A stretch of 60,520 nucleotides of DNA. It comes from Bacteroidota bacterium. Its GTDB lineage: Bacteria > Bacteroidota > Bacteroidia > Chitinophagales > Saprospiraceae. This document shows, piece after piece, positions 20,995 to 36,696 of the stretch. The notes under the pieces were generated by a model, which was not told the DNA's origin, made no database searches, and saw only the letters and a program-made list of their open reading frames with translations. Positions within the stretch are counted from its first letter, which is position 1. Every line of letters begins with the position of its first letter. The DNA is taken from assembly GCA_011321935.1 (NCBI GenBank), contig DROJ01000138.1:1-60520 (forward strand), in the 5' to 3' direction. The position numbers and the translations under genes were made by a program.

Positions 20995-21057
20995 GCCACC
21001 AAAAAAAGTCTGTTGTTGGGGCGGCCCGACACATATGAAAATTTTAAAACCCAAAAG

Positions 21058-21165
21058 TAGTAAATCGGACGGAAGTCCGATAAGTAAATCGGACGGAAGT
21101 CCGATCCCACAAGCAAACCATCCGGGAGTCTGATCCCACAAGCAAACCAGCCGGAAGTCCGATAA
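21058..21165. repeat. two short tandem duplications (taaatcggacggaagtccgat x2; cccacaagcaaacc..ccgg.agtc.gat x2)
   Basis: Direct inspection. The element ends 3 bp from the stop codon at 21169. Confidence 0.7.
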
Positions 21166-21168
21166 AGA

Positions 21169-21711
21169 TCACCTCGTCCGTTCCCCCTGAAACTGCTGCT
21201 CCTTATATTTAAACAGCACATTAAAAGAAGTCAGGCTGCCATAAATGCGGGTAATATACTGCTGCAGGTTCACCTTTTCCTCGTCCGTCAATTTACTGCT
21301 GTTGATGCGTTGTTCCATTACCCGGAGGCGGTCGCGCACCATCACTATTTTATGGAAAAAAGTTTCGATGGGGATTTCTTTGGATTTCAGTCCCTCGTCG
21401 GCAGGTTTCAGGATCATGGTGCCGCCTGTCCATTTGTCGCCCAGGTGGATGGTTTCCAAAGGGTCAGACCATGCCCGCAGCACCTTTATCAATGATTTTT
21501 CCACTTCGTTAAAAGTGATGCCCTGCGGAGCGGCAATGGCTTCGATGACCTGCCATTTGTCATATTCCTTTCCGACCATTTTGATGCCGTAGGTCATGAA
21601 GCTGACCTCGTAGGCCACTTTGTGCAAACGGATGACCACGCCGTCGCCATAAGCGGGGTGCTTCACCCGTGATCCGATGCCTAAGATTTCTTTGTTGCTT
21701 GTATCGCTCAT
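21169..21711 (-). CDS. hypothetical protein
   Basis: 180-aa ORF with ATG 21709-21711. Non-repetitive composition and no competing ORF. No family recognised. Confidence 0.6.
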   Translation of the reverse strand: MSDTSNKEILGIGSRVKHPAYGDGVVIRLHKVAYEVSFMTYGIKMVGKEYDKWQVIEAIAAPQGITFNEVEKSLIKVLRAWSDPLETIHLGDKWTGGTMILKPADEGLKSKEIPIETFFHKIVMVRDRLRVMEQRINSSKLTDEEKVNLQQYITRIYGSLTSFNVLFKYKEQQFQGERTR

Positions 21712-21877: not shown

Positions 21878-23380
21878 ATGTACGACACCATTATAATAGG
21901 CAGCGGTTTTGGTGGCTCGATGGCCGCTCACCAACTGGTAAATGCCGGAAAAAAAGTTTTGCTGATCGAGCGGGGCGGATGGGTGGCACGCGGCCCCGAA
22001 AACTGGACGATGCAAGGCTCGCTCGAACTGACGCCCAATTACGACAAAAGCACTCCCCTGAAAGTGATAAAAGGCGGCCACAAAAAAGTGATGGGGCTGT
22101 ACTCCTGCGTTGGCGGGCCATCGCTTTTTTATGGCGGCGTGTCCTTCCGTTTCCGCGAGCAGGATTTTGCCGAAGGCGAAAATAGTTGGCCGATAAATTA
22201 TGGCGACCTCGAACCATTTTATACAAAAGCAGAGCAGTTGTTGAGCATTTCGGGGGAGGCGGGCATTGACCCGACGGAGCCATTTCGGAGCAGGCCATTT
22301 CCACAAGGGCCGCCGCCGCTTGCCCTTATTTCACAAAAAATAAAAAGCGCTGCGCAGCAGATCGGAATGAATCCTTTCCAGTTGCCGCTCGCCATTAATT
22401 ACGAGGACAAAAGCCGCAACGTTTGTGAAAGCTGCACTACTTGCGACACCTTCGCCTGCGCCGTCGGCGCAAAAAACGACCTCGCGACAATGATCCTCCC
22501 GAAGCTGCTGGAACAGGGGATGGAACTGAAAACGGATACCGTCGTCAGGCAACTGAAAGCCGAAAACGGCAAAATAAGCGAAGTCCTTTGTTTTGATAAA
22601 AAAACGGGCAAAGAGCTGGTTTTCAGGGGCAAACACATTGTCCTTTCTGCGGGGTCACTGGGTTCACCGCATTTGCTATTGGCTTCTGGTTTCGATAAAC
22701 TGAACCCCGGCGGCAAGGTGGTCGGCCGCTATTTGATGCGGCATGTGAACGCCATTATTTTTGGCATCTTCCCCGGCGTGGCCGACAAGGAGGGGCGTTT
22801 TCATAAGCAGCTTGCCATTTTGGATTATTATTTTGGCCACCCAAACGCGAAGCTGAAAGGCAAGCTCGGCAGCCTGCAACAAGTGCCCACCCCGCCGATG
22901 GGATTGGTGCAAAACGAGGTGCCGGGGCCGCTCGGAAAATTGTTGAGCCAGGGGGTACGGCTGCTCACCGGGCTGCTCGCTATCGCCGAGGACGAGCCGC
23001 AGTTTTCCAACTCCCTCACCATTGACCCAAAACAAAAAGACAGGTACGGCCTGCCGCAGCCCGTCATCAGCCATGCCTATTCAAAACGGGATTTGGCGGC
23101 GCTGAAAGAATTGGTGAAACCCGCCAAAAAGGTTTTGTCGAAGGCGGGGGCGCTCACTCATTACGTGCATAATATCCGCACTTTTTCCCATGCGGTAGGT
23201 ACAGTGCGGATGGGCGATGACCCCAAAACTTCGGCGCTCGACAGCAACTGCCAATTCAGGGGAGTGGACAACCTTTTTGTGCTGGATGGGAGCTTTATGC
23301 CGACCTCCGCAGCGGTCAATCCGAGCTTGACGATAGCGGCGAACGCGCTGCGGGTGGGGGAGGTGATTGCTGGTATTTGA
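21878..23380 (+). CDS. GMC-family FAD oxidoreductase
   Basis: Trimmed to ATG 21878. YDTIIIGSGFGGS is the Rossmann FAD motif. It also has SAGSLGSPHLLL, and the C-terminal HAVGTVRMG...DGSFMPTS resembles the GMC C-terminal signature. Confidence 0.85.
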   Translation: MYDTIIIGSGFGGSMAAHQLVNAGKKVLLIERGGWVARGPENWTMQGSLELTPNYDKSTPLKVIKGGHKKVMGLYSCVGGPSLFYGGVSFRFREQDFAEGENSWPINYGDLEPFYTKAEQLLSISGEAGIDPTEPFRSRPFPQGPPPLALISQKIKSAAQQIGMNPFQLPLAINYEDKSRNVCESCTTCDTFACAVGAKNDLATMILPKLLEQGMELKTDTVVRQLKAENGKISEVLCFDKKTGKELVFRGKHIVLSAGSLGSPHLLLASGFDKLNPGGKVVGRYLMRHVNAIIFGIFPGVADKEGRFHKQLAILDYYFGHPNAKLKGKLGSLQQVPTPPMGLVQNEVPGPLGKLLSQGVRLLTGLLAIAEDEPQFSNSLTIDPKQKDRYGLPQPVISHAYSKRDLAALKELVKPAKKVLSKAGALTHYVHNIRTFSHAVGTVRMGDDPKTSALDSNCQFRGVDNLFVLDGSFMPTSAAVNPSLTIAANALRVGEVIAGI

Positions 23381-23389
23381 CGCCACTTA

Positions 23390-23585
23390 CTTGTTCCCGA
23401 TTTTCGGGACAGGCTATCTTGTAAAGACCTGTTCACGTTAGAACGGCGGCTGTACAAGGCTTCACTTTTTACGTGAACGGGTCTTTACAAGATAGCCTGT
23501 CCCGAAAATCGGGAACAAGGCGGCGTGCACTTCTTACGTGAACGGGTCTTTTCAAGATAGCCTGTCCCGAAAATCGGGAACAAGG
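23390..23585. repeat. 130-bp palindrome plus an extra half-copy (CTTGTTCCCGATTTTCGGGACAGGCTATC family)
   Basis: cttgttcccgattttcgggacaggctatcttgtaaagacctgttcacgt... is mirrored at 23470-23519, and a third arm follows at 23529-23585. A near-identical element lies at 42488-42612. Confidence 0.85.
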
Positions 23586-23630
23586 CGAGTGACAAAAAAA
23601 GTGGAGAGCAGCTATAACATTTTTCAAAAA

Positions 23631-24605
23631 ATGAATTTCAAAAAAATACAAAGCGGAGAGCCGGTCCACCTTGCCTTTTTGGGCTGCGGCGGCGTTACGG
23701 TCAAGCACAGCAAAACGTTGAAAGGTTTTAAAAATGTAAAATTGTATTACGCCAGCCGCTCTGCGGAAAAGGCCAATATTTTTAATAAAAAATGGAAAGG
23801 CGAGGGGGCTTTTGGGACTTACGAGGCGGCCATTTCATCGGAAAAAATAGACCTCGTGCTGATAGCCACGCCGCCCGACAGCCATTTGGAACTGGCGCTG
23901 AAAGCCATCCGGGCGGGCAAGCACGTCATCGTCGAGAAGCCGCCTTTTATGAAATCGGGCGACTTTGACTTGATCGCAGCGGAAAGGGAAAAGGCAGGCG
24001 TGCAGGTGATGGTGGCCGAAAATTATTTTTACAAACCCCTTTTAAAAAAACTGAAACAACTGCTCGCCACTGACCTGATCGGCGAAACCCGGTTCCTCTT
24101 TTTTAATTCCACAAAAAAACAAACGACGGGCGACTGGCGCGATACAACCAATGTGGCAGGCGGCGGCTCTCTCTTTGAAGGAGGCATACATTGGATCAAC
24201 TTCATTTCCAACCTCGGCCTGACCATCCATTCGCTGACCGGTTTCAGGCCTTTTCCAAACAGAAAAACGATAGAAAGAAGCATGCAAGTAGTGGCCAAAT
24301 ACGAAGAAGGCCCCGTTGCCACTTTGCTGTATTCTTGGGAGATCAAAGCCCTGCTGAACGGGCTGCGCATCTCGCGGATATACGGCACGCGCGGCTCGAT
24401 CACCTTCGAGTCCAACGGCGTTTTTATTTTTGTGAGAGGGAAAAAATGGAAGTTCATCTTCCCCGGTTTCGCCGACATCGGCGGCTCGAAAGGGATGTTC
24501 AAAGATTTTTTCAAAGCATTGCGCAGCGGAGAAGAACCGGCGTTCAATCTGGCAATGGCCAAAAGGGACCTGGAACTGGTGGAGGAGGCGTATTTAAATG
24601 GTTAA
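23631..24605 (+). CDS. Gfo/Idh/MocA-family NAD(P)-dependent oxidoreductase
   Basis: Trimmed to ATG 23631. VHLAFLGCGGV is the Rossmann start, followed by LVLIATPPDSHLELALKAIRAGKHVIVEKP (EKP motif). The stop (24603-24605) lies in the AATGGTTAA word repeat. Confidence 0.85.
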   Translation: MNFKKIQSGEPVHLAFLGCGGVTVKHSKTLKGFKNVKLYYASRSAEKANIFNKKWKGEGAFGTYEAAISSEKIDLVLIATPPDSHLELALKAIRAGKHVIVEKPPFMKSGDFDLIAAEREKAGVQVMVAENYFYKPLLKKLKQLLATDLIGETRFLFFNSTKKQTTGDWRDTTNVAGGGSLFEGGIHWINFISNLGLTIHSLTGFRPFPNRKTIERSMQVVAKYEEGPVATLLYSWEIKALLNGLRISRIYGTRGSITFESNGVFIFVRGKKWKFIFPGFADIGGSKGMFKDFFKALRSGEEPAFNLAMAKRDLELVEEAYLNG

Positions 24606-24710
24606 ATGGTTAAATGGTTAAATGGTTTTTCCAGCACGACGAGTACGCATCGTGCGGGAAAAACCATTTAAACCATTCAACCATTTAGCCATTTAGCCAT
24701 TCAAACCCAT
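24594..24710. repeat. hairpin with AATGGTTAAATGG word arms
   Basis: (ttaaatgg)n ... loop ccagcacgacgagtacgcatcgtgcggg ... (ccatttaa/ccatttag)n. Same family and a related loop at 56466-56669. Confidence 0.85.
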
Positions 24711-24762
24711 TCATTACCTTTGCGCCCCAAAAACGGGAAAACATACAAACAGCACTAAAAAG

Positions 24763-25602
24763 ATGAACATGCAAATATTGATTGCTTTACTTACCGGCCT
24801 CTTTGCAGGCCTTCACACATCAACTTGGGGGATGTACAAAGACTCTCCGCACGAGGGTTTTGAATGGGGGAAATATTACCGGAGTACCATCGCTGCGGTA
24901 TTGTTTGCACCGCTGGTCTGGTACATAACAGGGCTTGATCTGACCACTCCGAGCGGGGTCTTTTTGTTGTTCGGCTCGATCTACGTGGCCGAGCGGGGAC
25001 TGATGGAAATCTGGAAAACATTTTTGCGGACCGAAGACCAATCCAAGTACTTCATCCCCATGCAGTTGCACGTATTGGGGCGGGTAGTGGAGAGCAAGCG
25101 CGACCGCTATATTGCGGCCTTCTTTTATGTGGGCGGCATCATTTTGATCGGTTGGGGACTGGTCATGTTGTGGGGGATGTACAAAGCGGGCGACCTGAAC
25201 TGGAGCCCATACCTCATCCTGATTTTGTTGAGCGTAGGCGGCTGGGTTTCGGCATTTGGAGGGGCATGGAAAGATGCGCCGATTGAGGGTTTTGAGACTT
25301 TTAAGTTTTTCCGAAGCCCTGCCGTTGCTTACTTCTGGGCATGGGTGGCCGCCAATCTGACCGATAATTTTGTGGTCATTACACTGTGCAGCCTCGGCTT
25401 TACCGTTGCCTGCATCGAGACTTATAAAACCTTCTTTTTCCCGAGCCGCCCGCGGGGCAAATTCCAGGGCAAGCCCATTTCGTTTCCTGAAATGTTGAAG
25501 CGGCGGCAGAACTTTATTCCAATTTTTGTGGCGGCGTGGGTCTTTGTGATAGTGGCCGGGGTGATGGCATTTTTGGGGCCGCATTCGGGGCTGATTAAAT
25601 GA
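24763..25602 (+). CDS. polytopic membrane protein of unknown family with an internally duplicated W.(M/A).KD.P.EGFE..K..RS motif
   Basis: 279 aa with about 8 hydrophobic segments. WGMYKDSPHEGFEWGKYYRS (N-terminal half) and GGAWKDAPIEGFETFKFFRS (C-terminal half). Confidence 0.7.
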   Translation: MNMQILIALLTGLFAGLHTSTWGMYKDSPHEGFEWGKYYRSTIAAVLFAPLVWYITGLDLTTPSGVFLLFGSIYVAERGLMEIWKTFLRTEDQSKYFIPMQLHVLGRVVESKRDRYIAAFFYVGGIILIGWGLVMLWGMYKAGDLNWSPYLILILLSVGGWVSAFGGAWKDAPIEGFETFKFFRSPAVAYFWAWVAANLTDNFVVITLCSLGFTVACIETYKTFFFPSRPRGKFQGKPISFPEMLKRRQNFIPIFVAAWVFVIVAGVMAFLGPHSGLIK

Positions 25603-25722
25603 AAATGAAAATAGCTTGCCCCGAAACCTCGGGGAAAATGAAAAACCCACCCACCGAAAATCAAAAACAGGCGTTTTTTTCATTTTCCCCGAGGTTTCGG
25701 GGCAAGCTATTTTCATTTTAAT
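25597..25722. repeat. 126-bp palindrome with GAAAATGAAAAT word arms
   Basis: aaatgaaaatgaaaatagcttgccccgaaacctcggggaaaatgaaaaa is mirrored by tttttcattttccccgaggtttcggggcaagctattttcatttt. It contains the stop at 25600-25602. Confidence 0.85.
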
Positions 25723-25754
25723 GATCCGAGGTGAATGCACAAAATGCTCACTCG

Positions 25755-25873
25755 ACTCCGCTGTTTTTTGTCATCCGCTTTAGCGGAACTGCGGCGTCAA
25801 GAGGGAAGCCATGAACGGCTGCACACACCAGACGTCACAGTTCCGCTAAAGCGGATGACAAAAAACAGCGGAG
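25755..25873. repeat. 119-bp hairpin element
   Basis: ctccgctgttttttgtcatccgctttagcggaactg (25755-25790) pairs with cagttccgctaaagcggatgacaaaaaacagcggag (25838-25873). Confidence 0.8.
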
Positions 25874-26055
25874 CCGAATGCCTGTCCGAGAGGCAGGAAT
25901 TTTTGTGCACTTACCCTGCCCTTATTAAAATGATACATTTTCATTTTAATTTTGGCGGTGCGTCAAATGTAATGCTGGCAAAAAGCGAAAGCCCCTGTGT
26001 TCTCTGTGTTCCCTGTGGTTCTTCGGCATTACAGATACACAGCCTTAATTTTTTT

Positions 26056-26098
26056 GTAACTGTTTAACATCACCTCAAAGGCCCTGCTAAACAGTTGC
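26056..26098. mobile_element. 43-bp minimal member of the GTAACT-terminus MITE family
   Basis: gtaactgtttaacatcacctcaaaggccctgctaaacagttgc, flanked by ATTTTTTT on both sides (26048-26055 and 26099-26106). It lies 10 bp upstream of the ATG at 26109. The TSD is low-complexity, so it is weaker evidence. Confidence 0.6.
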
Positions 26099-26108
26099 AT
26101 TTTTTTTT

Positions 26109-27326
26109 ATGAAAACATCAGCCATCATATTAAATACAGCGCATCCTTCGGCGACCACGAAAGTGTATGGCCTGTTGGTGCTGGAGCGGACTTTCCATGC
26201 GCTGGAAAGGGCGGGGGTGGAAGCGGTTTTGCTGCCGGGTGCGGAGGAGGAACGGCTGCAAGAAGTGATCGGCAGGAATGACGGCTGGAAAATAAAATTC
26301 CGGTTTGTTGACCATTTCCGCTCGGCCATTGCGGAGCAGAAAAACGGCATTTTGGTGCTGGCTGCACCGCTGGTTTTAGACCAAAAAATTCCAGAAAAAT
26401 TGATGGAGGAAGGGGCTGGCAAAACGGATGTTTTGGTGGACGACAAGGGGCTGATCGCTTACTTTCCGCAGGCATTTTTACAAAAGATAAAGAGCATCCC
26501 GAAAGAATTGAACGGCTGGCTGGAGAAGGCGGAAATTGAAGATTTTAAAATAAAAAGCCTTGATTTTCAAGGACTTGTCTGTAACACCGTATTTAGCGAA
26601 GCGGAAAAAAAATCGGTGATGAAGGCGCTCATCCGCAGCCTGACCAAGCCGACCGATGGCTGGGTGTCGCGCAATTTGAACCGGCCGGTTTCGACCCTTT
26701 TCAGCAGGGTGCTGGCCCATACTCCGGTTACGCCCAATCAGTTTACGGTGGTCGCTGGTTTGCTCGGCCTTGCGACGGGCGTTTTTTTTGCGCTGGGCGG
26801 TTATTGGAACTACCTGATCGGCGGGGCGCTGTTCCATTTTACCTCCATCATGGACGGCGTGGACGGCGAACTGGCACGGCTGAAATACAAGTCTTCGCCC
26901 TTCGGGCAATGGCTGGATACGCTGGTGGACAACCTCTCGTACCTCGCTGCTTTGGCGGGCATTATCACCGGCATATTCAGGAACGGGGCAAGCGAACCGG
27001 TGAAAATTGCGGGCATCCTTGCGGTGGTTTTTGCGGTCTTGGCTTTGGGCAGTTTGTACCTCTATTTGCTGCGCTTCAAGTCGGGCGGCACTCTGCTGAA
27101 CGTGGAATACAGCTTTCAGGGAGGCGATGGTTTTTTCGATAAATTCATGCAAGTTGCGGCGGCTTTTGGTAAGCGGGACCTGTTTGCTCTGATCTTTTTT
27201 GGGCTGGGCATCATCGGGCAAATGCCGATGGCGCTGGGTTATGTGGCGATCATGGCTTTCTTCGTTTTTGCCTTTTCGATTCAGGCACATTTTGCGGCAG
27301 CTAAAAAAAGGAGGGGGGTGGAGTGA
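26109..27326 (+). CDS. IPCT/DIPPS-architecture protein: nucleotidyltransferase-like N-domain (degenerate) fused to a CDP-alcohol phosphatidyltransferase
   Basis: 405 aa. Linker DGWVSRNLNRPVS, then TM helices and DGVDGELARLKYKSSPFGQWLDTLVD, which fits D-G-x2-A-R-x8-G-x3-D-x3-D. The N-domain reads AIILNTAHPSATTKVYGLLVLER instead of a GxGTR loop. Confidence 0.8.
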   Translation: MKTSAIILNTAHPSATTKVYGLLVLERTFHALERAGVEAVLLPGAEEERLQEVIGRNDGWKIKFRFVDHFRSAIAEQKNGILVLAAPLVLDQKIPEKLMEEGAGKTDVLVDDKGLIAYFPQAFLQKIKSIPKELNGWLEKAEIEDFKIKSLDFQGLVCNTVFSEAEKKSVMKALIRSLTKPTDGWVSRNLNRPVSTLFSRVLAHTPVTPNQFTVVAGLLGLATGVFFALGGYWNYLIGGALFHFTSIMDGVDGELARLKYKSSPFGQWLDTLVDNLSYLAALAGIITGIFRNGASEPVKIAGILAVVFAVLALGSLYLYLLRFKSGGTLLNVEYSFQGGDGFFDKFMQVAAAFGKRDLFALIFFGLGIIGQMPMALGYVAIMAFFVFAFSIQAHFAAAKKRRGVE

Positions 27327-27375
27327 TCAGTGATCAGTGATTAGAAATCAGTGATCAGTGATTAGTGATCAGTTG
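27323..27375. repeat. GTGATCAG/GTGATTAG word tract overlapping the stop codon
   Basis: gtgatcagtgatcagtgattagaaatcagtgatcagtgattagtgatcagt. The stop tga is at 27324-27326. Confidence 0.8.
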
Positions 27376-27458
27376 GGAAATGTTTGTGCGGACGGTCAGT
27401 TTTTCTCCGGAATCCTTTGATTGTCAAAGGATTGAAAAATATTGTTTTTTAAAATAAA

Positions 27459-27616
27459 CTAACTGCTCAGGTAGGCCGTGCATTGGTAGCACGGCCTTTA
27501 GGCTGTCCCGGCCAAAGACGTTTACGTCGTTGCATGGTTTGAAAATTGGCAACGACGTAAACGTCTTTGACCGGGACAGCCTAAAGGCTGTGCTACCAAC
27601 ATACCTGGGCAGTTAC
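27459..27616. mobile_element. 158-bp palindromic MITE (CTAACTG...CAGTTAC termini)
   Basis: The arms pair almost end to end (ggtagcacggcctttaggctgtcccgg..aaagacgtttacgtcgttgc). A perfect 8-bp direct repeat AAAATAAA flanks it at 27451-27458 and 27617-27624. The core is related to 36502-36638. Confidence 0.8.
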
Positions 27617-27765
27617 AAAATAAAACATCAAAATTGTTAAACCCTTAAAGTAGAACCGCAGGTTGCCGATCAATTGAAAATATTGATGGATTTTCTGCGG
27701 AACACTTGCCTGCTATCCAATTTATTGGCAGGCAAACTTTTTTTTGACACCTATATAAATTACAC

Positions 27766-28737
27766 ATGAAAAAAACATTGAAGAAGATAAAACATAAGTT
27801 GATGCCTGCCGGCCCATCTGCCGCCACGGTGCCTTTTATGGAATATATCAAGTACAACCTGTTCACCACTTTTACGCCTTCTTTTCCGCAGATTATCCAA
27901 GTGCAGACCATTTACGGCTGCAATGCGAGGTGCGTTTTCTGCCCCATGGGGCGGGAGGACAACCGGATAAAAGGACGGATGAAGGATGCCACTTTCGAGC
28001 GCATCGTGAAAGAGGCGGTGAAAAACAATTGCAAAGTGCTCAGCCCTTATTTGCAAAACGACCCTTTGGTGGACAAAAAACTGCACGAAAAAATCCAGCT
28101 CATCCGGGATGTGCGGGGCAGGAAAATGTTCCCAAAAGCCAAGATCATCACCAACGGGGGGCTGCTCACCGAGCAAAGGGCCTACGACCTCATAAATGCC
28201 GGGCTGGAACAGATCGTTTTCAGTGTGCACGGGGTGGACAAGCAGATTTACGATGACATCATGCAGGGGCCAAAATTTGAAAAAGTGGTGGAGAACATCG
28301 AAAGGTTTGTCAGGATAAAAGATGAACTGGGGGCCAAGAACCCCAAGATCGAAGTTTGGGCGGTCTTGACCAAAGAGGTGGAAGCGCAGTTGGAGGAAAC
28401 CAAAGAATTTTGGAAATCCCGGGGGATCACTTTCAAAGGCCGCCAACTCGACAACCGGGCGAATCCTGATATCATCGACACTTCCCAAATGGCGAACGAT
28501 GACCTCGAATGGAAATACGCACATTATTGTACCATCCCGTTTTGGCGGGCTTGGATTCTCCACAACGGGGACATGGTGCTGTGCTGTGTGGACTGGGAAC
28601 GGACCAATGTTTTTGGAAATATCCATGATAATACCATCAAAGAAATCTGGAACAGTGCGGGCTATAAAGAGTTCCGCAAAAGGATGAAGGAAAGGGACAT
28701 TGCGGGGACTTTGTGCGAAAATTGCCAGGGGACTTGA
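27766..28737 (+). CDS. radical SAM enzyme with C-terminal SPASM/twitch-like Cys cluster
   Basis: 323 aa. CNARCVFC is the CxxxCxxC motif. C-terminal cysteines occur in CTIPF...LCCVDW...CENCQG. Confidence 0.85.
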   Translation: MKKTLKKIKHKLMPAGPSAATVPFMEYIKYNLFTTFTPSFPQIIQVQTIYGCNARCVFCPMGREDNRIKGRMKDATFERIVKEAVKNNCKVLSPYLQNDPLVDKKLHEKIQLIRDVRGRKMFPKAKIITNGGLLTEQRAYDLINAGLEQIVFSVHGVDKQIYDDIMQGPKFEKVVENIERFVRIKDELGAKNPKIEVWAVLTKEVEAQLEETKEFWKSRGITFKGRQLDNRANPDIIDTSQMANDDLEWKYAHYCTIPFWRAWILHNGDMVLCCVDWERTNVFGNIHDNTIKEIWNSAGYKEFRKRMKERDIAGTLCENCQGT

Positions 28738-28770
28738 CCGGGGAATTGATCTCCTTTGCAGTATAGAGGG

Positions 28771-28877
28771 GCTGTTCAATAAAGTGTTTCTCACGCAAAG
28801 ACGCAAAGGCGCAAAGTGTTGAAATTCAAATCTTTGCGCCTTTGCGCCTTTGCGTGAAACCCCCTTTATTGAACACT
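28771..28877. repeat. palindrome, CACGCAAAGGCGC family
   Basis: ctgttcaataaagtgtttctcacgcaaagacgcaaaggcgcaaag ... ctttgcgcctttgcgcctttgcgtgaaaccccctttattgaacac. Related to 30029-30136. Confidence 0.8.
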
Positions 28878-28945
28878 CCCAAAATGATCCTAATTTTCAA
28901 TTTATTTAATAGCAAGAATTGCTGATCTAATAACCGCATCCAAAT

Positions 28946-29920
28946 ATGAACAAGTTTAGATGGTTGGGCATCGTCGGGATATTTTTGTTGATATATCTGG
29001 TCCACAAATTTGGGTTCGACAAAATCGTCGCCAATGTGGCTTCGCTCAGGTATTACCTGCTGCTCATTTTCATCCCCTCGGTATGTACCTTGCTGGCCTC
29101 CGGGCTGGCATTCAGGCGCTTGCTGGCGCACTTGGGGGAACAGGTTTATTATTGGACGATCATCCGTATCAAAATAATCGGCACTGCTTTCGACCGCCTT
29201 TTGCCTTTGAGCTATATTGGGGGGGACTCGGTGCAATATTTCCATTTCAAAGAAAGGATGCCCGCCATGAACTCGGCGAGCGCACTGATTATTGACCGGG
29301 CCATCAACGTATATGGCAGCCTGATAATGATGTTTTTTTCGGCTGCTTTTTTGGGCCTGAAATTCGATGTGGTCCCGCTTTGGGTGGAGATAGCGCTGCC
29401 CGCCGTTATTTTGTTGATACTGGCCGGATTTACCTTTTTGCTGTTTAAAAGCAGGAAGCGTTTTTTTGTGGCTGCCGCCAAATTTATCAACAAGGTCAAT
29501 TTTAAAAAAGAAGCCTTGCTCAAGCTGCTCGGCAAGGCCGAAAACCTGAACAACAATATTTCGGGGTTTTTCAAAACAGGAAAAAACACTTTTCTTTTTG
29601 TCCTTTCCATGCACCTCACCGGACGGCTGATGGGCATCGTTGAAATATGGCTCATCATGCTGGTCATGGGGCTGGGCAACATGCCCGAACTGGCCTTCGT
29701 CATGGCCGGGCTGACGAGCCTGCTGGTCTCCGTTTTTGTGATTATACCCGGTCAGATCGGTTTTATGGAAGCGTCTTACGGGATGGTGTTCATGCTGCTC
29801 GGCTACGATCCCGAAATAGGGGTCAGTGTGCAGTTGGTCAGGAGGCTGCGGGTCATTATCTGGATCTGCATCGGCCTGTTTTTGGTGAATTTTGGGAAGG
29901 ATGTGAAAAGGGCAACGTGA
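28946..29920 (+). CDS. flippase-like / lysylphosphatidylglycerol-synthase-TM-region (UPF0104) family membrane protein
   Basis: 324 aa with about 8 TM segments. The N-terminus KFRWLGIVGIFLLIYLVHKFGFDKI and the overall layout resemble TIGR00374-type proteins. This is a recognition-level call. Confidence 0.6.
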   Translation: MNKFRWLGIVGIFLLIYLVHKFGFDKIVANVASLRYYLLLIFIPSVCTLLASGLAFRRLLAHLGEQVYYWTIIRIKIIGTAFDRLLPLSYIGGDSVQYFHFKERMPAMNSASALIIDRAINVYGSLIMMFFSAAFLGLKFDVVPLWVEIALPAVILLILAGFTFLLFKSRKRFFVAAAKFINKVNFKKEALLKLLGKAENLNNNISGFFKTGKNTFLFVLSMHLTGRLMGIVEIWLIMLVMGLGNMPELAFVMAGLTSLLVSVFVIIPGQIGFMEASYGMVFMLLGYDPEIGVSVQLVRRLRVIIWICIGLFLVNFGKDVKRAT

Positions 29921-30028
29921 GGGGACCGAATGACCAATAAATAAGAAGAGCATTTATTTTTTTAGCTTGGCCTTGCTGCTCGGATTTTATTGTTTGTGCA
30001 ACAAAGCCGTTCCTGAGATTAAAAAAAG

Positions 30029-30136
30029 GGGTATTCGATAAAATGTGTTTCACGCAAAGGCGCTAAGACGCAAAGGTTTGATTCGCAGTACTTTGCGTCT
30101 TAGCGCCTTTGCGTGAAACACATTTTATCGAATACC
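30029..30136. repeat. 108-bp palindrome, CACGCAAAGGCGC family
   Basis: ggtattcgataaaatgtgtttcacgcaaaggcgctaagacgcaaag is mirrored by ctttgcgtcttagcgcctttgcgtgaaacacattttatcgaatacc. Confidence 0.85.
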
Positions 30137-30146
30137 AAAAAAAACT

Positions 30147-31403
30147 ATGGAGAACCAACAACTTAAAACAGTCTGGATAGACGCCCGCCACCCAATGGGC
30201 AACCAACAGCTTTGGGGATTGACCCTATTGGAAAGGAACATCCGGGAGATGGACAAGATGGGTTTTGAAGAGGCCGTCGTTTTGGCGGCAGCCGACGACA
30301 GCCCCTCGCAGCATTTTTGCCATCGGTTGCCCGATAGCATTTCCGTTTCTTTTGTGAAAGCTGGCACCGGCAATGATTACCAATCGTTGATCGGCCTTTT
30401 GGGGTCTTCTGCTGCCCCCGTTCTGGTTTTGTCCGGCAATGCACTCAACGACCGACGGGTCATTTCCGAGCTTATCAGTTTGCCGAGCCCTTATGCGGCA
30501 CTGGCGCCTTCCGGCGATTTCAAGCCTGCGGCGGCGGCCTGTTTCACTAAAAACGAAGCGGCTTTCATCGAGGCCAACAAAGGTTTGGAATTGGATGCCA
30601 TCGTCAAAAAAGGGCTGGAGGAGGGCCTGTTCCCCGGCTTTGATTTTGCTGCTTTCGACCCATATATCAAAAGCCTCAGAAGGGAAATCCCCCCTTATTT
30701 GATTAAGGTGGAAACGCAGTCAGATTACGGGGATGCCAACCGGTATTTGAAATTGACCGTCCACAAAGGCACCAATGATTTTGTCGCAAAATACATCCAC
30801 CCGCCCTTTGAATTTGGCATCACCAAACTCCTTGCGACCACTCCCGTCATCCCCAACCACGTTACTTTTTTGGGCATCGCATTGTCGGCCACCACTGTTT
30901 ATTGTTTTGCCACGGGACAGGTTTTGCTGGGGGCGGTATTGGCCGCAACCAAAGGGATACTGGACGGCGTGGACGGCAAACTGGCGAGGTTCTTATTGAA
31001 ATACAGCAAATTTGGCGACCTGCTCGACCATGTGAGCGATACCATTTTTGATGCGCTGTGGTACCTTGCTTTGGGCTGGTTTTTTTCGCAGGGAGATTGG
31101 TCGTCGCCCGCCGCCTGCTATACGATGATCCTTTTTGTTTCTTATTGGGTGGAGCGGATTGTGCCGGGCCTTTTCAAAAAAGTCCATAAATACGAAATAT
31201 ATGATTTCAGCCCTATTGATCGGTTCAGCCGCCTGATCGGCAGCCGGATGAACAACAATGTTTGGGTGCTGCTCATTGCTACCCTTTTTGGCTATGCGCA
31301 GCCTGCTTTTTATTTTATCAGTATCTGGATGTTGGTCACTGCGGCCTGGCATACCTTCCGGTTTGCTTATGTCACTTTGTTCAAGGTGGAGCGGAAGAAT
31401 TGA
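30147..31403 (+). CDS. second IPCT/DIPPS-architecture protein (degenerate nucleotidyltransferase-like domain + CDP-alcohol phosphatidyltransferase)
   Basis: 418 aa. DGVDGKLARFLLKYSKFGDLLDHVSD is the transferase motif. The N-domain reads VWIDARHPMGNQQLWGLTLLER. It is a paralog of 26109-27326. Confidence 0.8.
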   Translation: MENQQLKTVWIDARHPMGNQQLWGLTLLERNIREMDKMGFEEAVVLAAADDSPSQHFCHRLPDSISVSFVKAGTGNDYQSLIGLLGSSAAPVLVLSGNALNDRRVISELISLPSPYAALAPSGDFKPAAAACFTKNEAAFIEANKGLELDAIVKKGLEEGLFPGFDFAAFDPYIKSLRREIPPYLIKVETQSDYGDANRYLKLTVHKGTNDFVAKYIHPPFEFGITKLLATTPVIPNHVTFLGIALSATTVYCFATGQVLLGAVLAATKGILDGVDGKLARFLLKYSKFGDLLDHVSDTIFDALWYLALGWFFSQGDWSSPAACYTMILFVSYWVERIVPGLFKKVHKYEIYDFSPIDRFSRLIGSRMNNNVWVLLIATLFGYAQPAFYFISIWMLVTAAWHTFRFAYVTLFKVERKN

Positions 31404-31528: not shown

Positions 31529-31774
31529 ATGGAATTGTCAGTAATAAAAATCGGAAATTCAAAAGGGTTTAGACTTAGCAAAACCTTGATTGACAAATAC
31601 AATATCAAAGACAAGGTTGAGCTTATCCTTGAAAAAGGTTACATCATATTAAAGCCTATTCCGGCACCAAGAAAAGGTTGGGAAGCGGCATTTAAAAAGA
31701 TGAATGAAAACGGCGAAGACCAACTTCTTTTCGATGACGTTTTTGATAATGAAAACCTGGAAGAATGGGTTTAA
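31529..31774 (+). CDS. mazE: AbrB/MazE/SpoVT-family antitoxin
   Basis: 81 aa. MELSVIKIGNSKGFRLSKTLIDKY is the SpoVT-AbrB swapped-hairpin motif, followed by an acidic tail. It overlaps the toxin gene by 10 nt. Confidence 0.8.
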   Translation: MELSVIKIGNSKGFRLSKTLIDKYNIKDKVELILEKGYIILKPIPAPRKGWEAAFKKMNENGEDQLLFDDVFDNENLEEWV

Positions 31775-32088
31775 ACCAATATCAAATAGTCCTCGTCAAC
31801 CTTGATCCGACAATCGGTAGTGAAATAAAAAAAACAAGGCCTTGTGTCGTTATTTCACCGGATGAAATGAATAAATATCTTCGGACAATTATAGTTGCCC
31901 CAATGACAACAACGTCAAGAAAATATCCGACAAGGATTGAAGTAAAACACGATAATAAAATAGGCTGGATTGTAATTGACCAAATCCGGACGATTGACAA
32001 ACAGCGGATTGTCAGGGTTTTAGGGAGGCTATCAGAACCTGAGATTAAAGAAGTTAAATCGGTTTTGAAAGAGACTTTTATTGATTGA
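31765..32088 (+). CDS. mazF: MazF/PemK-family endoribonuclease toxin
   Basis: 107 aa. IVLVNLDPTIGSEIKKTRPCVVIS...IIVAPMTT...IDQIRTIDKQR is the PemK signature pattern. Confidence 0.85.
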   Translation: MGLNQYQIVLVNLDPTIGSEIKKTRPCVVISPDEMNKYLRTIIVAPMTTTSRKYPTRIEVKHDNKIGWIVIDQIRTIDKQRIVRVLGRLSEPEIKEVKSVLKETFID

Positions 32089-32146: not shown

Positions 32147-33073
32147 TTACCTGACAAATTTCCGCACCCCGCTAAATCCTTCCGTTTTTATTTCCAAAAA
32201 ATAAAGCCCGTGTTTTGGCAGCACCGCAGATATATTAAAATCCAATTGCTGCTCGCCCTGAGGCAAGTTTCCTTGATAAAGTTCGGCCATCAGTTGGCCT
32301 GAAATGTAGCGTACCAAAACGGTAATATTTCCTGAATTGGGCATTTCAAAATTTAATTTCAAGCGTTCAGAAACTGGGTTGGGGGCAATGCTGACCGTCA
32401 GGTTATTTTTGATCGGTTCATTGGTAGGGGACAAGATGCCGCCGTCCAATGCTTCAAAATATTCATCGGGCACCAGGTTCATTTCGAAGCTGCTGTTGTC
32501 GAACCGGAGGTTGCGCATTCCGGTGTGGTCGAAGGCCATGGTTTGTTCGTCGGGCAGCCACATATCGGTGCCCAAAGTAAGCTCGGCCATGGCGCTGTCC
32601 ATTTCTTCGACAATGGCAAAATACCCCGGCGGGGTACTCGCCCGGATGACCATGTCCACCTTGTCGTCGGTACTCAATCCCGAATTGATTACCTCGGCTA
32701 TATAGCCCGACCAGCCAAAAAAATTGGGAAATTCATTGTTCCACGCATCGTCTGCTCCCTGCGTATTTTCCCAAACCTCAAAACTGGGGTAAGGGTCGTT
32801 GGTGCCTTCGTAAACAAAGGCGATATAAGTGGGGTTGGTGAACACTTCGTCCACGCCGGAGAGGGCACAACTGCAAAAAGTATTCGGCTGCTCGGTCATT
32901 AATTTCATGTTGCCGAGCCTTATTTCAATGTCGGTAAAATCTTCGGAATATTGCAATGAAACAGTGATGACCGTATCGGGGTCAATGCAGGCATTTGCTT
33001 TATTGGTAAATGCAAATAAAGCGAAAACCAATAATGCAGAACAAGCGGTGATTTTGTAAAAATGTTTTTTCAT
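32147..33073 (-). CDS. secreted protein with T9SS type A (Por_Secre_tail) C-terminal sorting domain
   Basis: Trimmed to ATG 33071-33073. Signal peptide MKKHFYKITACSALLVFALFAFTNKANA. C-terminus IAPNPVSERLKLNFEMP...GLYFLEIKTEGFSGVRKFVR. Confidence 0.8.
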   Translation of the reverse strand: MKKHFYKITACSALLVFALFAFTNKANACIDPDTVITVSLQYSEDFTDIEIRLGNMKLMTEQPNTFCSCALSGVDEVFTNPTYIAFVYEGTNDPYPSFEVWENTQGADDAWNNEFPNFFGWSGYIAEVINSGLSTDDKVDMVIRASTPPGYFAIVEEMDSAMAELTLGTDMWLPDEQTMAFDHTGMRNLRFDNSSFEMNLVPDEYFEALDGGILSPTNEPIKNNLTVSIAPNPVSERLKLNFEMPNSGNITVLVRYISGQLMAELYQGNLPQGEQQLDFNISAVLPKHGLYFLEIKTEGFSGVRKFVR

Positions 33074-33199
33074 GATAGAGGAAATTTTATGATTAAAGAT
33101 TATGGTTTCGATATAGAAATGGCCTTTTGGCATTGGCCAATTGATAGTGTTCAAACCTTGCTTTTGCAACTATTTTTTTATGAAAAAATAAAACCCGGA

Positions 33200-34396: not shown

Positions 34397-34404
34397 TTTT
34401 AAAA

Positions 34405-35709: not shown

Positions 35710-35738
35710 AATTATTCTATTTGACAAATAAACGATTT

Positions 35739-36638: not shown

Positions 36639-36696
36639 CACTTTTTAATTTTTGTGCCACCGAAACCCGGTTCGGCAGCATAAACCAAATAAATTT

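Follow-up and report, generated by a model that had tools for sequence, protein, structure and literature searches.

The seven-gene locus described here is a mosaic of two modules with different histories and not a single conserved seven-gene unit. The locus lies in a 60,520-nucleotide stretch of DNA (the window) from a bacterium under Saprospiraceae (contig DROJ01000138.1). Module A consists of g1 to g4 and module B consists of g5 to g7. The locus may make a cyclitol- or polyol-phosphate membrane lipid, tailor it by redox steps, and flip it, a prediction from gene families and their neighbours on which we stand evenly divided. The most likely headgroup would be of the inositol type. A BtrN-like radical-SAM enzyme paired with a CDP-alcohol phosphotransferase (CDP-AP) is an uncharacterised combination, and it recurs beside lipid-export genes. 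The initial annotation, made from the window alone, knew of no characterised pathway with this gene set, and a literature search also gave no description of it.

Gene content of the locus

All seven open reading frames (ORFs) were confirmed on the forward strand, as first annotated (Table 1). Pfam and NCBIfam profile matches confirmed the families of six genes, and all the families that had been named were borne out. The exception is g3, described at first as a novel membrane protein with a duplicated motif, which indeed acquired no match in Pfam or NCBIfam. The genes 5' of the cluster are on the reverse strand and the cluster is followed by a MazEF-like pair and further reverse-strand genes, so the seven genes form a bounded unit. 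The ORF of g2 opens at GTG 23538 within a repeat copy, and its true start is likely ATG 23631 because the homologues are 325-327 aa long. The window contains no genes for MIPS, a functional cytidylyltransferase, PIP phosphatase, MMPL, or MlaC, so both substrate supply and export must depend on genes located elsewhere. Genes for PAP2 IPC synthase and HAD hydrolase are also absent from the window.

Table 1 Genes and intergenic palindromes of the locus, numbered from the first letter of the window.
Feature	Position	Strand	Remarks
g1, GMC-family FAD oxidoreductase, cytoplasmic	21878..23380	+	500 aa; from ATG 21878; ORF opens at TTG 21788
Palindrome g1/g2	23390..23584		54-nt arms and a third arm copy; -102 kcal/mol, z -18
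g2, Gfo/Idh/MocA NAD(P)-dependent oxidoreductase	23631..24605	+	324 aa; from ATG 23631
Palindrome g2/g3	24593..24705		TTAAATGG repeats
g3, polytopic membrane protein, highly conserved, uncharacterised	24763..25602	+	duplicated motif
Two palindromes in the 507-nt g3/g4 gap	25599..25880		25599-25722 and 25749-25880; -77 kcal/mol, z -14.6
g4, type-A CDP-AP with degenerate N-terminal cytidylyltransferase-like domain, AF2299/DIPPS-like	26109..27326	+	CDP-OH_P_transf
Palindrome g4/g5	27483..27599		module A/module B junction; -99 kcal/mol, z -17
g5, BtrN-like radical-SAM enzyme with C-terminal auxiliary-cluster (twitch/SPASM) domain	27766..28737	+	Radical_SAM, SPASM
Palindrome g5/g6	28768..28880		-69 kcal/mol, z -12.5
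g6, MprF-flippase-domain-like (LPG_synthase_TM / UPF0104) membrane protein without synthase domain	28946..29920	+	
Palindrome g6/g7	30030..30136		46-nt arms, 100% complementary; -86 kcal/mol, z -18.7
g7, type-B CDP-AP with degenerate N-terminal domain, ancient paralogue of g4	30147..31403	+	CDP-OH_P_transf

The transferases g4 and g7

Both transferases matched PF01066 (47.5 bits for g4 and 48.5 bits for g7) and keep the full signature D-x2-D-G-x2-A-R-x8-G-x3-D-x3-D, which spans residues 249-274 in g4. Their TM domain is about 200 aa. The NCBIfam profiles ranked in the same order for both proteins, from IPCT/DIPPS through archaetidylinositol-phosphate synthase (67 bits for g7) to PIP synthase, with PgsA and PssA far lower. 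The window genes missed all NCBIfam equivalog cutoffs for inositol enzymes by a wide margin. Orthology to IPCT/DIPPS was rejected (93.5 bits for g4 and 69 bits for g7, cutoff 580), and so was orthology to BT_1523 (27 and 18 bits against 350).

IPCT/DIPPS (A. fulgidus AF0263, PDB 4MND) and AF2299 (PDB 4O6M) exhibit the same fusion of a cytosolic cytidylyltransferase-like N-domain with a six-TM phosphotransferase that carries the full signature. The alignment of g4 to AF2299 (E 5.7e-26, residues 48-311) covers both domains. NTP-transferase-like N-domains had been assigned to both window proteins. This alignment upholds the assignment for g4, but Pfam NTP_transferase matched neither protein, and the N-domain of g7 is recognisable solely via its similarity to g4 (26% identity, E 4e-17, N-domain included). 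The AAGxGxRL nucleotide loop is absent from both g4 and g7, as had been noted, and is kept in KSB1 and Scalindua homologues. The DGWVSR..NR..S linker that had been attributed to both fusions is found in g4 (DGWVSR..NRP.S) but not in g7, which carries the subtype-specific linker NDFVAKYIHPPFE with RREIPPY just before it. The g7 protein belongs to a separate, type-B subfamily. Its closest relatives are KSB1 and Calditrichota proteins encoded beside radical-SAM genes (44-50% identity).

The window proteins differ from IPCT/DIPPS and AF2299 in the missing nucleotide loop. They also differ from IPCT/DIPPS in being two divergent paralogues, in their mesophilic Bacteroidota hosts (IPCT/DIPPS are from hyperthermophiles), and in a context that is related to lipids and not to solutes. 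AF2299 and AfDIPPS are the closest solved relatives and do not process lipids (PMC4634129), an observation that counts against a lipid reading.

The radical-SAM enzyme g5 and the flippase-like protein g6

The g5 protein matched Radical_SAM (59 bits) and SPASM (55 bits) in Pfam. It contains a CxxxCxxC motif (C52/C56/C59) and the invariant cysteines C255, C273, C274, C317, and C320. In a profile search of PDB, BtrN came first (E 1.4e-24), its twitch cysteines in register with those of g5, and MoaA second (2e-6), and a fold search also ranked BtrN best (E 1e-14, TMt 0.73). These matches indicate that g5 is a specific distant homologue of the cyclitol dehydrogenase BtrN (2-deoxy-scyllo-inosamine dehydrogenase of butirosin biosynthesis, PDB 4M7T). 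Both share the CxxxCxxC core and the C-terminal auxiliary-cluster domain. However, g5 has about 20% identity to BtrN, about 40 more N-terminal residues, an additional CC pair, and a context of phosphotransferases and cytidylyltransferases instead of aminoglycoside genes. The identity between g5 and its copies from other phyla is 62-80%.

The g6 protein matched PF03706 (98.6 bits, residues 8-304 of 324) and the TIGR00374 'flippase-like domain' (50.9 bits, over the cutoff of 43.2), which agrees with its first description as a UPF0104 flippase-like protein. It resembles HpnL of hopanoid export (91.5 bits, under the cutoff of 195.65).

The radical-SAM/CDP-AP core across phyla

Loci that pair the radical-SAM enzyme with a transferase span about ten phyla. 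CDP-AP is present in 34 of the 41 clade-A radical-SAM loci, is adjacent in 30, and has two copies in 19. In other phyla the type-A gene immediately precedes the radical-SAM gene, just as g4 precedes g5. IPCT-like cytidylyltransferases, stand-alone or fused, are present in 25 loci, and MIPS is close to the radical-SAM gene in just 1 of 78. A sister radical-SAM clade is located beside an NTP transferase with a TagF-like CDP-glycerol transferase, or beside DedA.

The neighbours at the clade-A loci are MMPL (22), MlaC (20), OEP (15), and MOP flippase (12). The lipid-export neighbours in other phyla consist of an HpnN/BstA-like RND pump, MlaC or MlaC-DUF3047, LptD-N-like and TolC-like proteins, and flippases of the MOP or DedA type. 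The Arenicellales loci also contain Spt-like, reductase, and OlsC-like lipid genes. The likeness to hopanoid/sterol lipid export (HpnN/HpnL; BstA/B/C) extends to the pumps and periplasmic lipid carriers, but cyclase and hopanoid genes are absent, HpnL and HpnN scores are under their cutoffs, and a phospholipid or sphingolipid is the predicted cargo. In KSB1 and Nitrospirales the radical-SAM gene adjoins aldehyde dehydrogenases, which could point to a non-cyclitol alcohol.

The oxidoreductases g1 and g2 and the membrane protein g3

The g1 protein matched GMC_oxred_N (61 bits) and GMC_oxred_C (84 bits) in Pfam and has no hydrophobic segment. It is below every NCBIfam equivalog cutoff, with cholesterol oxidase as the top match (79 bits against 850). 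The g2 protein matched GFO_IDH_MocA (62 bits) and its C3 domain (43 bits) in Pfam, and scored 61 bits against the NCBIfam cutoff of 355 for inositol 2-dehydrogenase IolG.

The g3 protein is multi-pass and carries the consensus W-x-KD-x-P-x-EGF...(Y/F)(Y/F)RS twice, as TWGMYKDSPHEGF..YYRS and GAWKDAPIEGF..FFRS. None of its 2554 homologues has a name, and an alignment of 22 sequences has 79 invariant columns. Its AF2 model (pLDDT 83, pTM 0.85) consists entirely of helices, nine in number, and matched no PDB fold (best E 0.36). Natural fusions of g3 to DedA/VTT and to DUF3047 were identified.

The GMC-Gfo-g3 trio is widespread in Bacteroidota and usually adjoins a flippase-type protein. In a set of 50 loci, g3 occurs with Gfo in 41 and with GMC in 39, and the partners 3' of the trio are LPG_synthase_TM (8 loci), DedA/VTT (10), and type-A CDP-AP (12). 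MIPS is close to the trio in only 2 of the 50. In Ferruginibacter (L087) and in L103, the trio directly adjoins a BT_1522-1527-type inositol-lipid cluster that consists of MIPS, BT_1523-type PIP synthase, PAP2, and PgpA, and the L087 PIP synthase exceeds the BT_1523 equivalog cutoff.

The Bacteroides inositol-lipid clusters (BT_1521-1527, and the B. vulgatus 'alternative' with NTP-transferase, CDP-AP, and HAD) are likewise from Bacteroidota and combine a CDP-AP with an LPG-synthase-TM-like neighbour, which has been reported at both (Heaver et al., 2022, PMC9246714). The window differs in lacking MIPS, PIP phosphatase, PAP2 IPC synthase, and HAD hydrolase, and its radical-SAM, GMC, Gfo, and g3 genes are outside the described pathways.

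History of the two modules

Conserved synteny was found across genomes, and the objection foreseen in the initial annotation, a lack of synteny elsewhere, falls away. The seven genes are adjacent, as had been described, but they form two modules, and all seven occur together in only one further genome, the sister L005. Module A is vertically inherited and ancestral in Saprospiraceae and Lewinellaceae, where a GT4 glycosyltransferase follows it (after g4 in L083, L084, L089, L091, and L092). Module B was inserted after g4 and replaced the GT4 gene, a remnant of which lies between g4 and g5 in L005 in place of the palindrome. At third codon positions, g1-g4 are 37-49% identical to their L005 counterparts, against 69-77% for g5-g7.

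Proposed function and alternatives

The first reading, an uncharacterised pathway that builds, tailors, and translocates an inositol-type phospho-alcohol headgroup, gains support from the transferase scores, synteny, the BtrN-like g5, and the inositol-lipid neighbours. It had left the product as a lipid or a solute; the lipid is now favoured because of the neighbours in other phyla, and the solute is disfavoured. Against the proposed lipid pathway stand the genes missing from the window, the rarity of MIPS near the radical-SAM gene and near the trio, the equivalog cutoffs missed for inositol enzymes, the low identity of g5 to BtrN, and the aldehyde dehydrogenase neighbours.

Both g4 and g7 would be catalytically intact six-TM-class enzymes with dead cytidylyltransferase domains of their own. 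Each would join a CDP-activated donor (CDP-diacylglycerol, or a CDP-alcohol from elsewhere in the genome) to a soluble cyclitol or polyol phosphate at the cytoplasmic face. The product would be a phosphodiester-linked headgroup, to which the other transferase may attach a further phospho-alcohol. The g5 enzyme would abstract a hydrogen atom and convert a secondary cyclitol hydroxyl to a ketone without oxygen, like BtrN. FAD-dependent g1 and NAD(P)-dependent g2 may perform more oxidation and then re-reduction, and the outcome could be a keto headgroup or an epimerisation like that of DprE1/DprE2, the mycobacterial FAD oxidase and NADH reductase that epimerise lipid-linked ribose. That likeness is one of logic only, a flavin oxidase and a nicotinamide-dependent reductase beside lipid-headgroup genes, as the families are unrelated (VAO-type and SDR against GMC and Gfo/Idh/MocA). 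The g6 protein would move the finished lipid to the outer leaflet, and g3, a new membrane protein, may act with the flippase step.

A rather unlikely alternative is the phospho-alcohol decoration of a cell-surface glycan (teichoic-acid-like polymer, capsule, or LPS-type polymer) instead of a phospholipid. In this case g4 and g7 would place cyclitol- or polyol-phosphate on a polysaccharide that is lipid-linked or nascent, and g6 would translocate the lipid-linked intermediate. The Gemmatimonadota loci lie among several GT4 glycosyltransferases and near Wzi, neighbours that a glycan target fits equally. MOP/Wzx-type flippases in at least 12 loci, the GT4 gene after g4 in most Saprospiraceae, and the tie between inositol and the Bacteroides capsule (Heaver et al., 2022, PMC9246714) agree with this, as does the location of the sister radical-SAM clade beside GT4 genes and the TagF-like CDP-glycerol glycerophosphotransferase. 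However, the most frequent neighbours are lipid carriers (HpnN-like RND, MlaC, and LptD-N-like) and not polysaccharide exporters, the Arenicellales loci have sphingolipid-type genes, the window cluster has no glycosyltransferase, and GT4 beside a PI-type synthase is no less characteristic of glycolipids, e.g., mycobacterial PIMs. Glycan modification is also not known from class I CDP-alcohol phosphotransferases.

It is unlikely that no single pathway exists and that modules A and B are functionally independent, placed side by side through insertion, with the trio acting, for example, on another lipid or sugar, and the radical-SAM module having an unrelated role. Their differing histories, the strong hairpins between all seven genes, the trio without any CDP-AP in 36 of the 50 loci, and the radical-SAM module without the trio in all other phyla save one Gemmatimonadota locus would fit such independence. 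That one locus (L017), however, unites CDP-AP, radical-SAM, CDP-AP, Gfo (40%), and GMC (41%), and g4-type transferases belong to the radical-SAM module in other phyla in the same g4-g5 order. Both modules also recruit flippase-type partners and share a DUF3047 link, and the insertion lies exactly after g4, where it displaced a headgroup-modifying GT4 gene.

It is improbable that the product is a compatible solute, a soluble phosphodiester (di-myo-inositol-phosphate, glycerophospho-inositol, or diglycerol-phosphate type) made as by IPCT/DIPPS and presumably AF2299. These two best solved or curated relatives use soluble substrates (PMC4634129), the TM domain size fits the six-TM class with soluble acceptors, and the homologue from KSB1 has the complete NTP-transferase/CDP-AP fusion. 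Against a solute stand the loop missing from both N-domains, the equivalog scores far under the cutoff, the window without MIPS or phosphatase genes, and the module's repeated location beside lipid transport and flippase genes. The known DIP-type solutes come from hyperthermophiles, whereas the hosts here are MAGs of phyla without hyperthermophily.

Intergenic palindromes

The intergenic hairpins first noted are real, but they represent a genome-wide element. Co-transcription is uncertain because of the seven very stable hairpins. The g3/g4 gap is 87 nt in L005, and the g1/g2 palindrome is absent from the syntenic site in L005 and L083. The palindromes g5/g6 and g6/g7 belong to one family, and the family of the g1/g2 palindrome has a further copy at 42481-42620.

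Gene content of the cluster and its flanks

Seven open reading frames (g1 to g7) lie head-to-tail on the forward strand at 21878-31403. The first four are referred to as module A and the last three as module B. The gene families proposed in the initial annotation were borne out by Pfam and NCBIfam searches. The genes and other features of the window are listed in the following table.

Features of the cluster, its flanks and the rest of the window
Feature	Position	Strand	Match or location
g1	21878-23380	+	GMC_oxred_N and GMC_oxred_C
g2	23631-24605	+	GFO_IDH_MocA and C3 domain
g3	24763-25602	+	No Pfam or NCBIfam match
g4	26109-27326	+	CDP-OH_P_transf
g5	27766-28737	+	Radical_SAM and SPASM
g6	28946-29920	+	LPG_synthase_TM; above TIGR00374 "flippase-like" cutoff
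g7	30147-31403	+	CDP-OH_P_transf
TPR-SDR fusion	16190-19264	-	5' flank of cluster
AhpC/redoxin-like protein	19564-20904	-	5' flank of cluster
180-aa protein	21169-21711	-	5' flank of cluster; no Pfam match
MazE/MazF (PemK) toxin-antitoxin-like pair	31529-32088	+	Directly 3' of g7
T9SS-tail protein, OMP beta-barrel protein, ECF sigma factor	32147-36311	-	After MazEF-like pair
MgsA-like AAA+ gene	36652-37971		
Antisense ORF over g5	27760-28806	-	
Antisense ORF over g6	28826-29953	-	
Antisense ORF over g3	24820-25740	-	
110-aa ORF	25735-26067		Inside palindromic elements
2098-aa ORF	43401-49697	+	No Pfam domain at E <= 1e-5
Large T9SS cargo proteins	38278-42387, 4131-7868, 8066-11245		Near 2098-aa ORF
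Palindromes outside cluster (examples)	50530-50761, 56467-56668, 52781-52935, 3976-4117, 42481-42620, 19405-19533, 11425-11542, 12894-12969		
Short tandem repeats	21052-21163, 24594-24625, 27322-27379		Gene boundaries

The GMC oxidoreductase g1 was matched by PF00732 (61 bits) and PF05199 (84 bits), and its N-terminus (MYDTIIIGSGFGGS) carries the GxGxxG FAD motif. None of the NCBIfam equivalog cutoffs was reached by g1. The g2 protein belongs to the Gfo/Idh/MocA family (PF01408, 62 bits; PF22725, 43 bits) and scored 60.9 bits against the cutoff of 355 for inositol 2-dehydrogenase IolG (TIGR04380). The reading frame of g2 opens with GTG at 23538; the ATG at 23631 is the likelier start because its homologues are 325-327 aa long. 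The g6 protein belongs to the MprF flippase domain/LPG_synthase_TM family (PF03706, 98.6 bits against 33.4; TIGR00374, 50.9 against 43.2). It scored 91.5 bits for HpnL (TIGR03476), under the cutoff of 195.65, and has no C-terminal synthase domain, the Pfam match covering residues 8-304 of 324.

The order of the three upstream flanking genes is the same in L005 (Saprospiraceae OFTM40) and in two other relative loci, L083 and L084. An SDR, as in the upstream TPR-SDR fusion, is also found repeatedly close to the radical-SAM module of KSB1 loci. The MgsA-like gene directly follows g7 in L005, therefore about 5 kb has apparently been inserted 3' of g7 in the window. Elsewhere the window shows the usual content of a Bacteroidota chromosome, including T9SS cargo proteins and housekeeping genes, and the source names of the closest homologues point to Saprospiraceae/Lewinellaceae. 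Because of its position within palindromic elements and its absence from L005, the 110-aa ORF was rejected as a gene. The three antisense ORFs (306-375 aa) exceed the real genes they overlap and misled naive longest-ORF calling, which calls for caution in automated annotation of this genome.

The tblastn probes for MIPS, PIPS, PAP2, and PgpA returned a single match in the 60-kb window, a weak CDP-alcohol phosphotransferase match on g4. MIPS is also rare in the related loci. The window thus differs from the Bacteroides BT-type inositol-lipid cluster, which has MIPS, PIP synthase, PIP phosphatase, and PAP2 IPC synthase (Heaver et al., 2022, PMC9246714).

The CDP-alcohol phosphotransferases g4 and g7

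Both g4 and g7 are class I CDP-alcohol phosphotransferases (PF01066; 47.5 and 48.5 bits, respectively, against a threshold of 22). The complete signature D-x2-D-G-x2-A-R-x7-9-G-x3-D-x3-D is found at residues 249-274 of g4 and 273-298 of g7, and both proteins have a transmembrane domain of about 200 aa. The g4 protein aligned with AF2299 (PDB 4O6M) over both the cytosolic cytidylyltransferase-like and transmembrane domains (E 5.7e-26, query 48-311 against chain 51-301), and g7 over the transmembrane part alone (3e-8). The N-domain of g7 is homologous to that of g4, and both proteins are of the AF2299-like type with a cytidylyltransferase-like extramembrane domain. They share 26% identity (E 4e-17, N-domain included) and are ancient paralogues.

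The curated models ranked in the same order for both proteins, with IPCT/DIPPS first, archaetidylinositol-phosphate synthase second, PIP synthase third, and PgsA/PssA far lower. All scores are far under the equivalog cutoffs. For g4 and g7, respectively, these are 93.5 and 69 bits for IPCT/DIPPS (NF041135, cutoff 580; partial matches), 41.9 and 51.7 bits for the mycobacterial PIP synthase (NF045883, cutoff 170), and 27.3 and 17.7 bits for the Bacteroides BT_1523 PIP synthase (NF052561, cutoff 350). As a positive control, the last cutoff was exceeded by the neighbouring phosphotransferase of the Ferruginibacter locus L087 (389.6 bits). Ordinary PgsA/PssA housekeeping synthases were rejected, as the pgsA/pssA scores (16-24 bits) are well under those of the inositol-type models.

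The initial annotation held that both fusions had lost the GxGTR loop, and this was right because the AAGxGxRL loop and NTP_transferase Pfam matches are kept in the type-A proteins of KSB1 (AAGNGSRL), Cytophagia (AAGNGRRL), and Scalindua (AAGQGTRL), and not in g4 and g7. The same position (alignment A3) reads NTAHPSATTKVYGL in g4 and DARHPMGNQQLWGL in g7, which lack the (A/G)AGxGxR(L/M) loop of a functional cytidylyltransferase required for IPCT/DIPPS, and no NTP_transferase Pfam model matched either protein. True IPCT/DIPPS orthologues were rejected on this lost loop and on the low scores. The claim that both fusions carry the same linker holds for g4 and fails for g7. Alignment with homologues from other phyla separated two subtypes, type A including g4 (linker DGxxSRxxNRPxS) and type B including g7 (linker NDFxAKYIHPxxE, preceded by an RRxxPPY/RPYW segment).

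The radical-SAM enzyme g5

The g5 protein belongs to the radical SAM superfamily (PF04055, 58.9 bits against 29.5), and its CxxxCxxC motif (C52/C56/C59) is invariant in 18 family sequences. PF13186 (SPASM) also matched with 55 bits. Only five C-terminal cysteines are invariant in the family (C255, C273, C274, C317, and C320), against the seven of a SPASM domain, and these five align with the C-terminal cysteines of BtrN. BtrN ends in a "twitch" domain with one cluster, which makes one auxiliary cluster the likelier number for g5. The SPASM match is most likely a BtrN-like twitch domain.

The family profile (A1) matched BtrN best in the PDB (E 1.4e-24, residues 44-164 and 248-321), spanning the core and the cysteine-rich C-terminal domain, and MoaA was next (2.2e-6). 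The AlphaFold model of g5 (pLDDT 81) had 4m7t as its best Foldseek match (E 9.7e-15, TMt 0.73), followed by SuiB, MoaA, BlsE, anSME, DesII, and EpeE. The 4m7t structure is BtrN with AdoMet and substrate bound, and BtrN is the radical-SAM 2-deoxy-scyllo-inosamine dehydrogenase. The g5 protein is therefore specifically homologous to BtrN over the core and auxiliary domains, and is predicted to be of the cyclitol-dehydrogenase type. A RiPP maturase role was set aside, since the constant partners are cytidylyltransferases and phosphotransferases and the best structural relatives (BtrN, BlsE, DesII, and MoaA) act on small molecules.

Distribution of the radical-SAM module

The scan for g5 relatives (one genome per species) identified 78 loci. 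The close clade (identity at least about 43%) comprises 41 loci besides the window, from KSB1, Calditrichota, Cytophagia, Gemmatimonadota, Arenicellales, Entotheonella, Rokubacteria, Latescibacterota, Myxococcota, and Acidobacteriota. Phosphotransferases of the g4/g7 type are present in 34 of these 41 loci, adjacent in 30 and in two copies in 19. Across phyla the radical-SAM enzyme is 62-80% identical, against 24-37% for the type-A transferase.

Recurring partners were identified by de novo clustering of neighbours followed by Pfam/NCBIfam annotation. They are HpnN/BstA-like MMPL pumps (22 loci), MlaC or MlaC-DUF3047 (20 loci), TolC-like OEP (15 loci), MOP/Wzx-like flippases (12 loci), aldehyde dehydrogenases (seven loci), and an LptD-N-like protein (Arenicellales loci). 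Cytidylyltransferases, stand-alone or fused, with the IPCT half of IPCT/DIPPS as best match, occur in 25 loci. A hopanoid link through HpnL/HpnN similarity was rejected, as the scores are under cutoff and no hopanoid genes are present.

The Arenicellales loci also hold a serine-palmitoyltransferase-like enzyme (547 bits against a cutoff of 640), an HpnA/OleD-like reductase, and an OlsC-like acyl hydroxylase, and the surroundings of the module there are sphingolipid-like. In these gammaproteobacterial loci (L024-L028, L030, L032, and L046) the three genes stand with an unannotated 368-aa protein, an HpnN-like pump, two type-B phosphotransferases, a MOP flippase, the radical-SAM enzyme, and the LptD-N-like protein. 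The loci come from uncultured MAGs and look like a candidate phospho-sphingolipid pathway.

No CDP-alcohol phosphotransferase stands beside the distant radical-SAM clade (Aquificota, Nitrospirales, and others). Several of its loci place the enzyme beside an NTP transferase and a TagF-like CDP-glycerol phosphotransferase, or are followed by a DedA/VTT protein. Enzymes that produce and consume CDP-alcohols thus accompany the radical-SAM enzyme regardless of the transferase fold. Its partners argue for a predicted role in making or modifying the alcohol moiety. Distant-clade loci are L051, L052, L055, L056, L057, and L080 (Aquificota/Deferribacteres) and L048-L050, L053, L054, and L082; GT4 also occurs with the NTP transferase and TagF-like protein, and TetR, OEP, and HlyD with DedA/VTT at other loci.

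The g3 family and the GMC-Gfo-g3 trio

At least 2554 proteins make up the g3 family; none of them has a name or a Pfam domain, and an alignment of 22 diverse members shows 79 invariant columns. The g3 model is of high confidence (pLDDT 83, pTM 0.85) and all-helical, and a PDB fold search with it gave no match. Natural fusions of g3 to DedA/VTT and to DUF3047 (P0361, P0363, and P0364) were found in the representative library; MlaC, too, is fused to DUF3047 in the neighbourhood of the radical-SAM module. For the C-terminal extensions of several further fusions (500-577 aa; P0362, P0393, P0457, and P0460), neither Pfam nor BLAST gave an identity.

The metagenome scan with g3 identified 80 further loci, and counts were taken over 50 loci with a length of 6 kb or more. 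Of these, 41 have Gfo and 39 have GMC together with g3, 12 have a g4-type phosphotransferase, and five have a GT4 gene. The gene after the trio is often LPG_synthase_TM (eight loci) or a DedA/VTT protein (10 loci). The order in L087 is GMC-Gfo-g3-LPG_synthase_TM, directly followed by PAP2, FA hydroxylase, DUF4833, the phosphotransferase above the BT_1523 cutoff, a CarboxypepD_reg protein, GtrA, PgpA, and MIPS. The genes from PAP2 to MIPS are the Bacteroides inositol-lipid cluster. The arrangement of L103 is similar. An LPG-synthase-like neighbour was noted at both Bacteroides inositol-lipid clusters (Heaver et al., 2022, PMC9246714).

Mosaic origin of the cluster

Other Saprospiraceae/Lewinellaceae loci exhibit the same reverse-strand flanks and the order GMC-Gfo-g3-g4, with a GT4 glycosyltransferase after g4 in L083, L084, L089, L091, and L092. 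All seven genes occur together only in the window and L005, which are also the only carriers of the radical-SAM/g6/g7 set among the 50 g3 loci. L005 retains a 41-codon GT4 remnant (9716-9838) between g4 and the radical-SAM gene, corresponding to residues 20-60 and 66% identical to the intact L083 gene (E 8e-12). This remnant marks the insertion scar of module B. At third codon positions, g1-g4 of the window and of L005 are 37-49% identical and g5-g7 are 69-77% identical, therefore module B was common to both lineages far more recently than the split of module A. Taken with the GT4 gene of the other loci and the remnant, these identities indicate that module B replaced GT4. The locus is a clear example of one module taking the place of another within a lipid-headgroup cluster, here radical-SAM/flippase/transferase in place of GT4. 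The Gemmatimonadota locus L017 holds CDP-alcohol phosphotransferase, radical-SAM, phosphotransferase, Gfo (40%), and GMC (41%) together, thus the two modules joined more than once.

Proposed function of the cluster

We put at about an even chance the reading that the cluster builds, redox-tailors, and flips a membrane lipid with a cyclitol- or polyol-phosphate headgroup. At the cytoplasmic face, g4 and g7 would join a CDP-activated donor to a soluble cyclitol or polyol phosphate. The donor is probably CDP-diacylglycerol because the cytidylyltransferase domains of g4 and g7 are degenerate and there is no other one in the window. A ring hydroxyl would be oxidised by g5 through BtrN-like radical chemistry, and g1 (FAD) and g2 (NAD(P)) could carry out further oxidation or reduction, possibly a net epimerisation. 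The product would be flipped by g6, and g3 may help at the membrane. Inositol is the leading candidate for the alcohol.

Decoration of a surface glycan is an unlikely alternative, with real support from the GT4, Wzi, MOP flippase, and TagF-like contexts. That g1-g4 and g5-g7 are simply two independent modules is rather improbable. A soluble DIP-like solute is very unlikely, as only the nearest solved relatives favour it: AF2299 and AfDIPPS both carry a cytidylyltransferase-like extramembrane domain and neither processes lipids, while six-TM phosphotransferases use a soluble acceptor regardless of the donor (Clarke et al., 2015, PMC4634129).

A joint reading extends the lipid pathway beyond the window, and we offer it tentatively, as somewhat improbable in its entirety. 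CDP-alcohol phosphotransferases paired with a BtrN-like radical-SAM enzyme would mark an unrecognised class of bacterial envelope lipid, with a radical-SAM-modified cyclitol or polyol phosphate as headgroup and a glycerolipid or sphingolipid anchor. Its production would span at least ten phyla (Bacteroidota, KSB1, Calditrichota, Gemmatimonadota, Arenicellales, Entotheonella, Latescibacterota, Rokubacteria, Myxococcota, and Acidobacteriota), and a dedicated route consisting of the HpnN-like pump, MlaC-DUF3047, and the TolC-like protein would take it to the outer membrane. Separately, g3 would be the founder of a new membrane protein family working with lipid flippases across Bacteroidota.

The superfamilies of the parts and the logic of headgroup attachment by CDP-alcohol phosphotransferases followed by flipping are known already. 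What has yet to be characterised is the tailoring chemistry, together with the type-B subfamily of transferases, the g3 family, and the module shared across phyla. The literature searches turned up no account of CDP-alcohol phosphotransferases paired with a radical-SAM enzyme, nor of the GMC-Gfo-g3 trio. Bacterial inositol-type lipids were long considered rare and have been tied to Bacteroidota fitness and host interaction only recently. The locus points to a further branch of these lipids, with an aminocyclitol-dehydrogenase-related radical-SAM enzyme and two other oxidoreductases in the headgroup chemistry, and its core module occurs in many poorly studied phyla beside outer-membrane lipid-export genes. 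It offers testable candidates for a new envelope lipid class, for the part played by AF2299-like proteins whose cytidylyltransferase domain is dead, and for the function of more than 2500 conserved membrane proteins (the g3 family) without a Pfam model or structural relative.

Palindromes and repeats

Every intergenic gap of the cluster holds a palindrome with arms of 36-56 nt, and the five that were folded gave -69 to -102 kcal/mol (z -12 to -19). The window has 16 long near-perfect intergenic palindromes in total (1530-56668, arms 37-109 nt), of which the 9.6-kb cluster holds seven. Two or more sequence families are represented more than once: the element at 23390-23519 is similar to that at 42481-42620, and the one at 28768-28880 to that at 30030-30136. 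No palindromes are present at the syntenic intergenic sites of L005 and L083, and the Rfam search returned only sub-threshold miRNA-hairpin look-alikes. A cluster-specific regulatory device was rejected on the window-wide distribution, the recurrence of families outside the cluster, and the bare sites of L005 and L083. The palindromes are a lineage-specific genome-wide element and not a part of the pathway. They look like a REP/MITE-like element and may break or process the transcript between the cluster genes.

The sigma-70 promoter scan, which does not cover Bacteroidota promoters, gave 14 sites against 12.5 expected. Short tandem repeats occur at gene boundaries, with a unit of about 29 nt in four copies upstream of g1, four copies of TTAAATGG across the stop codon of g2, and heptamers of the AGTGATC type across that of g4.
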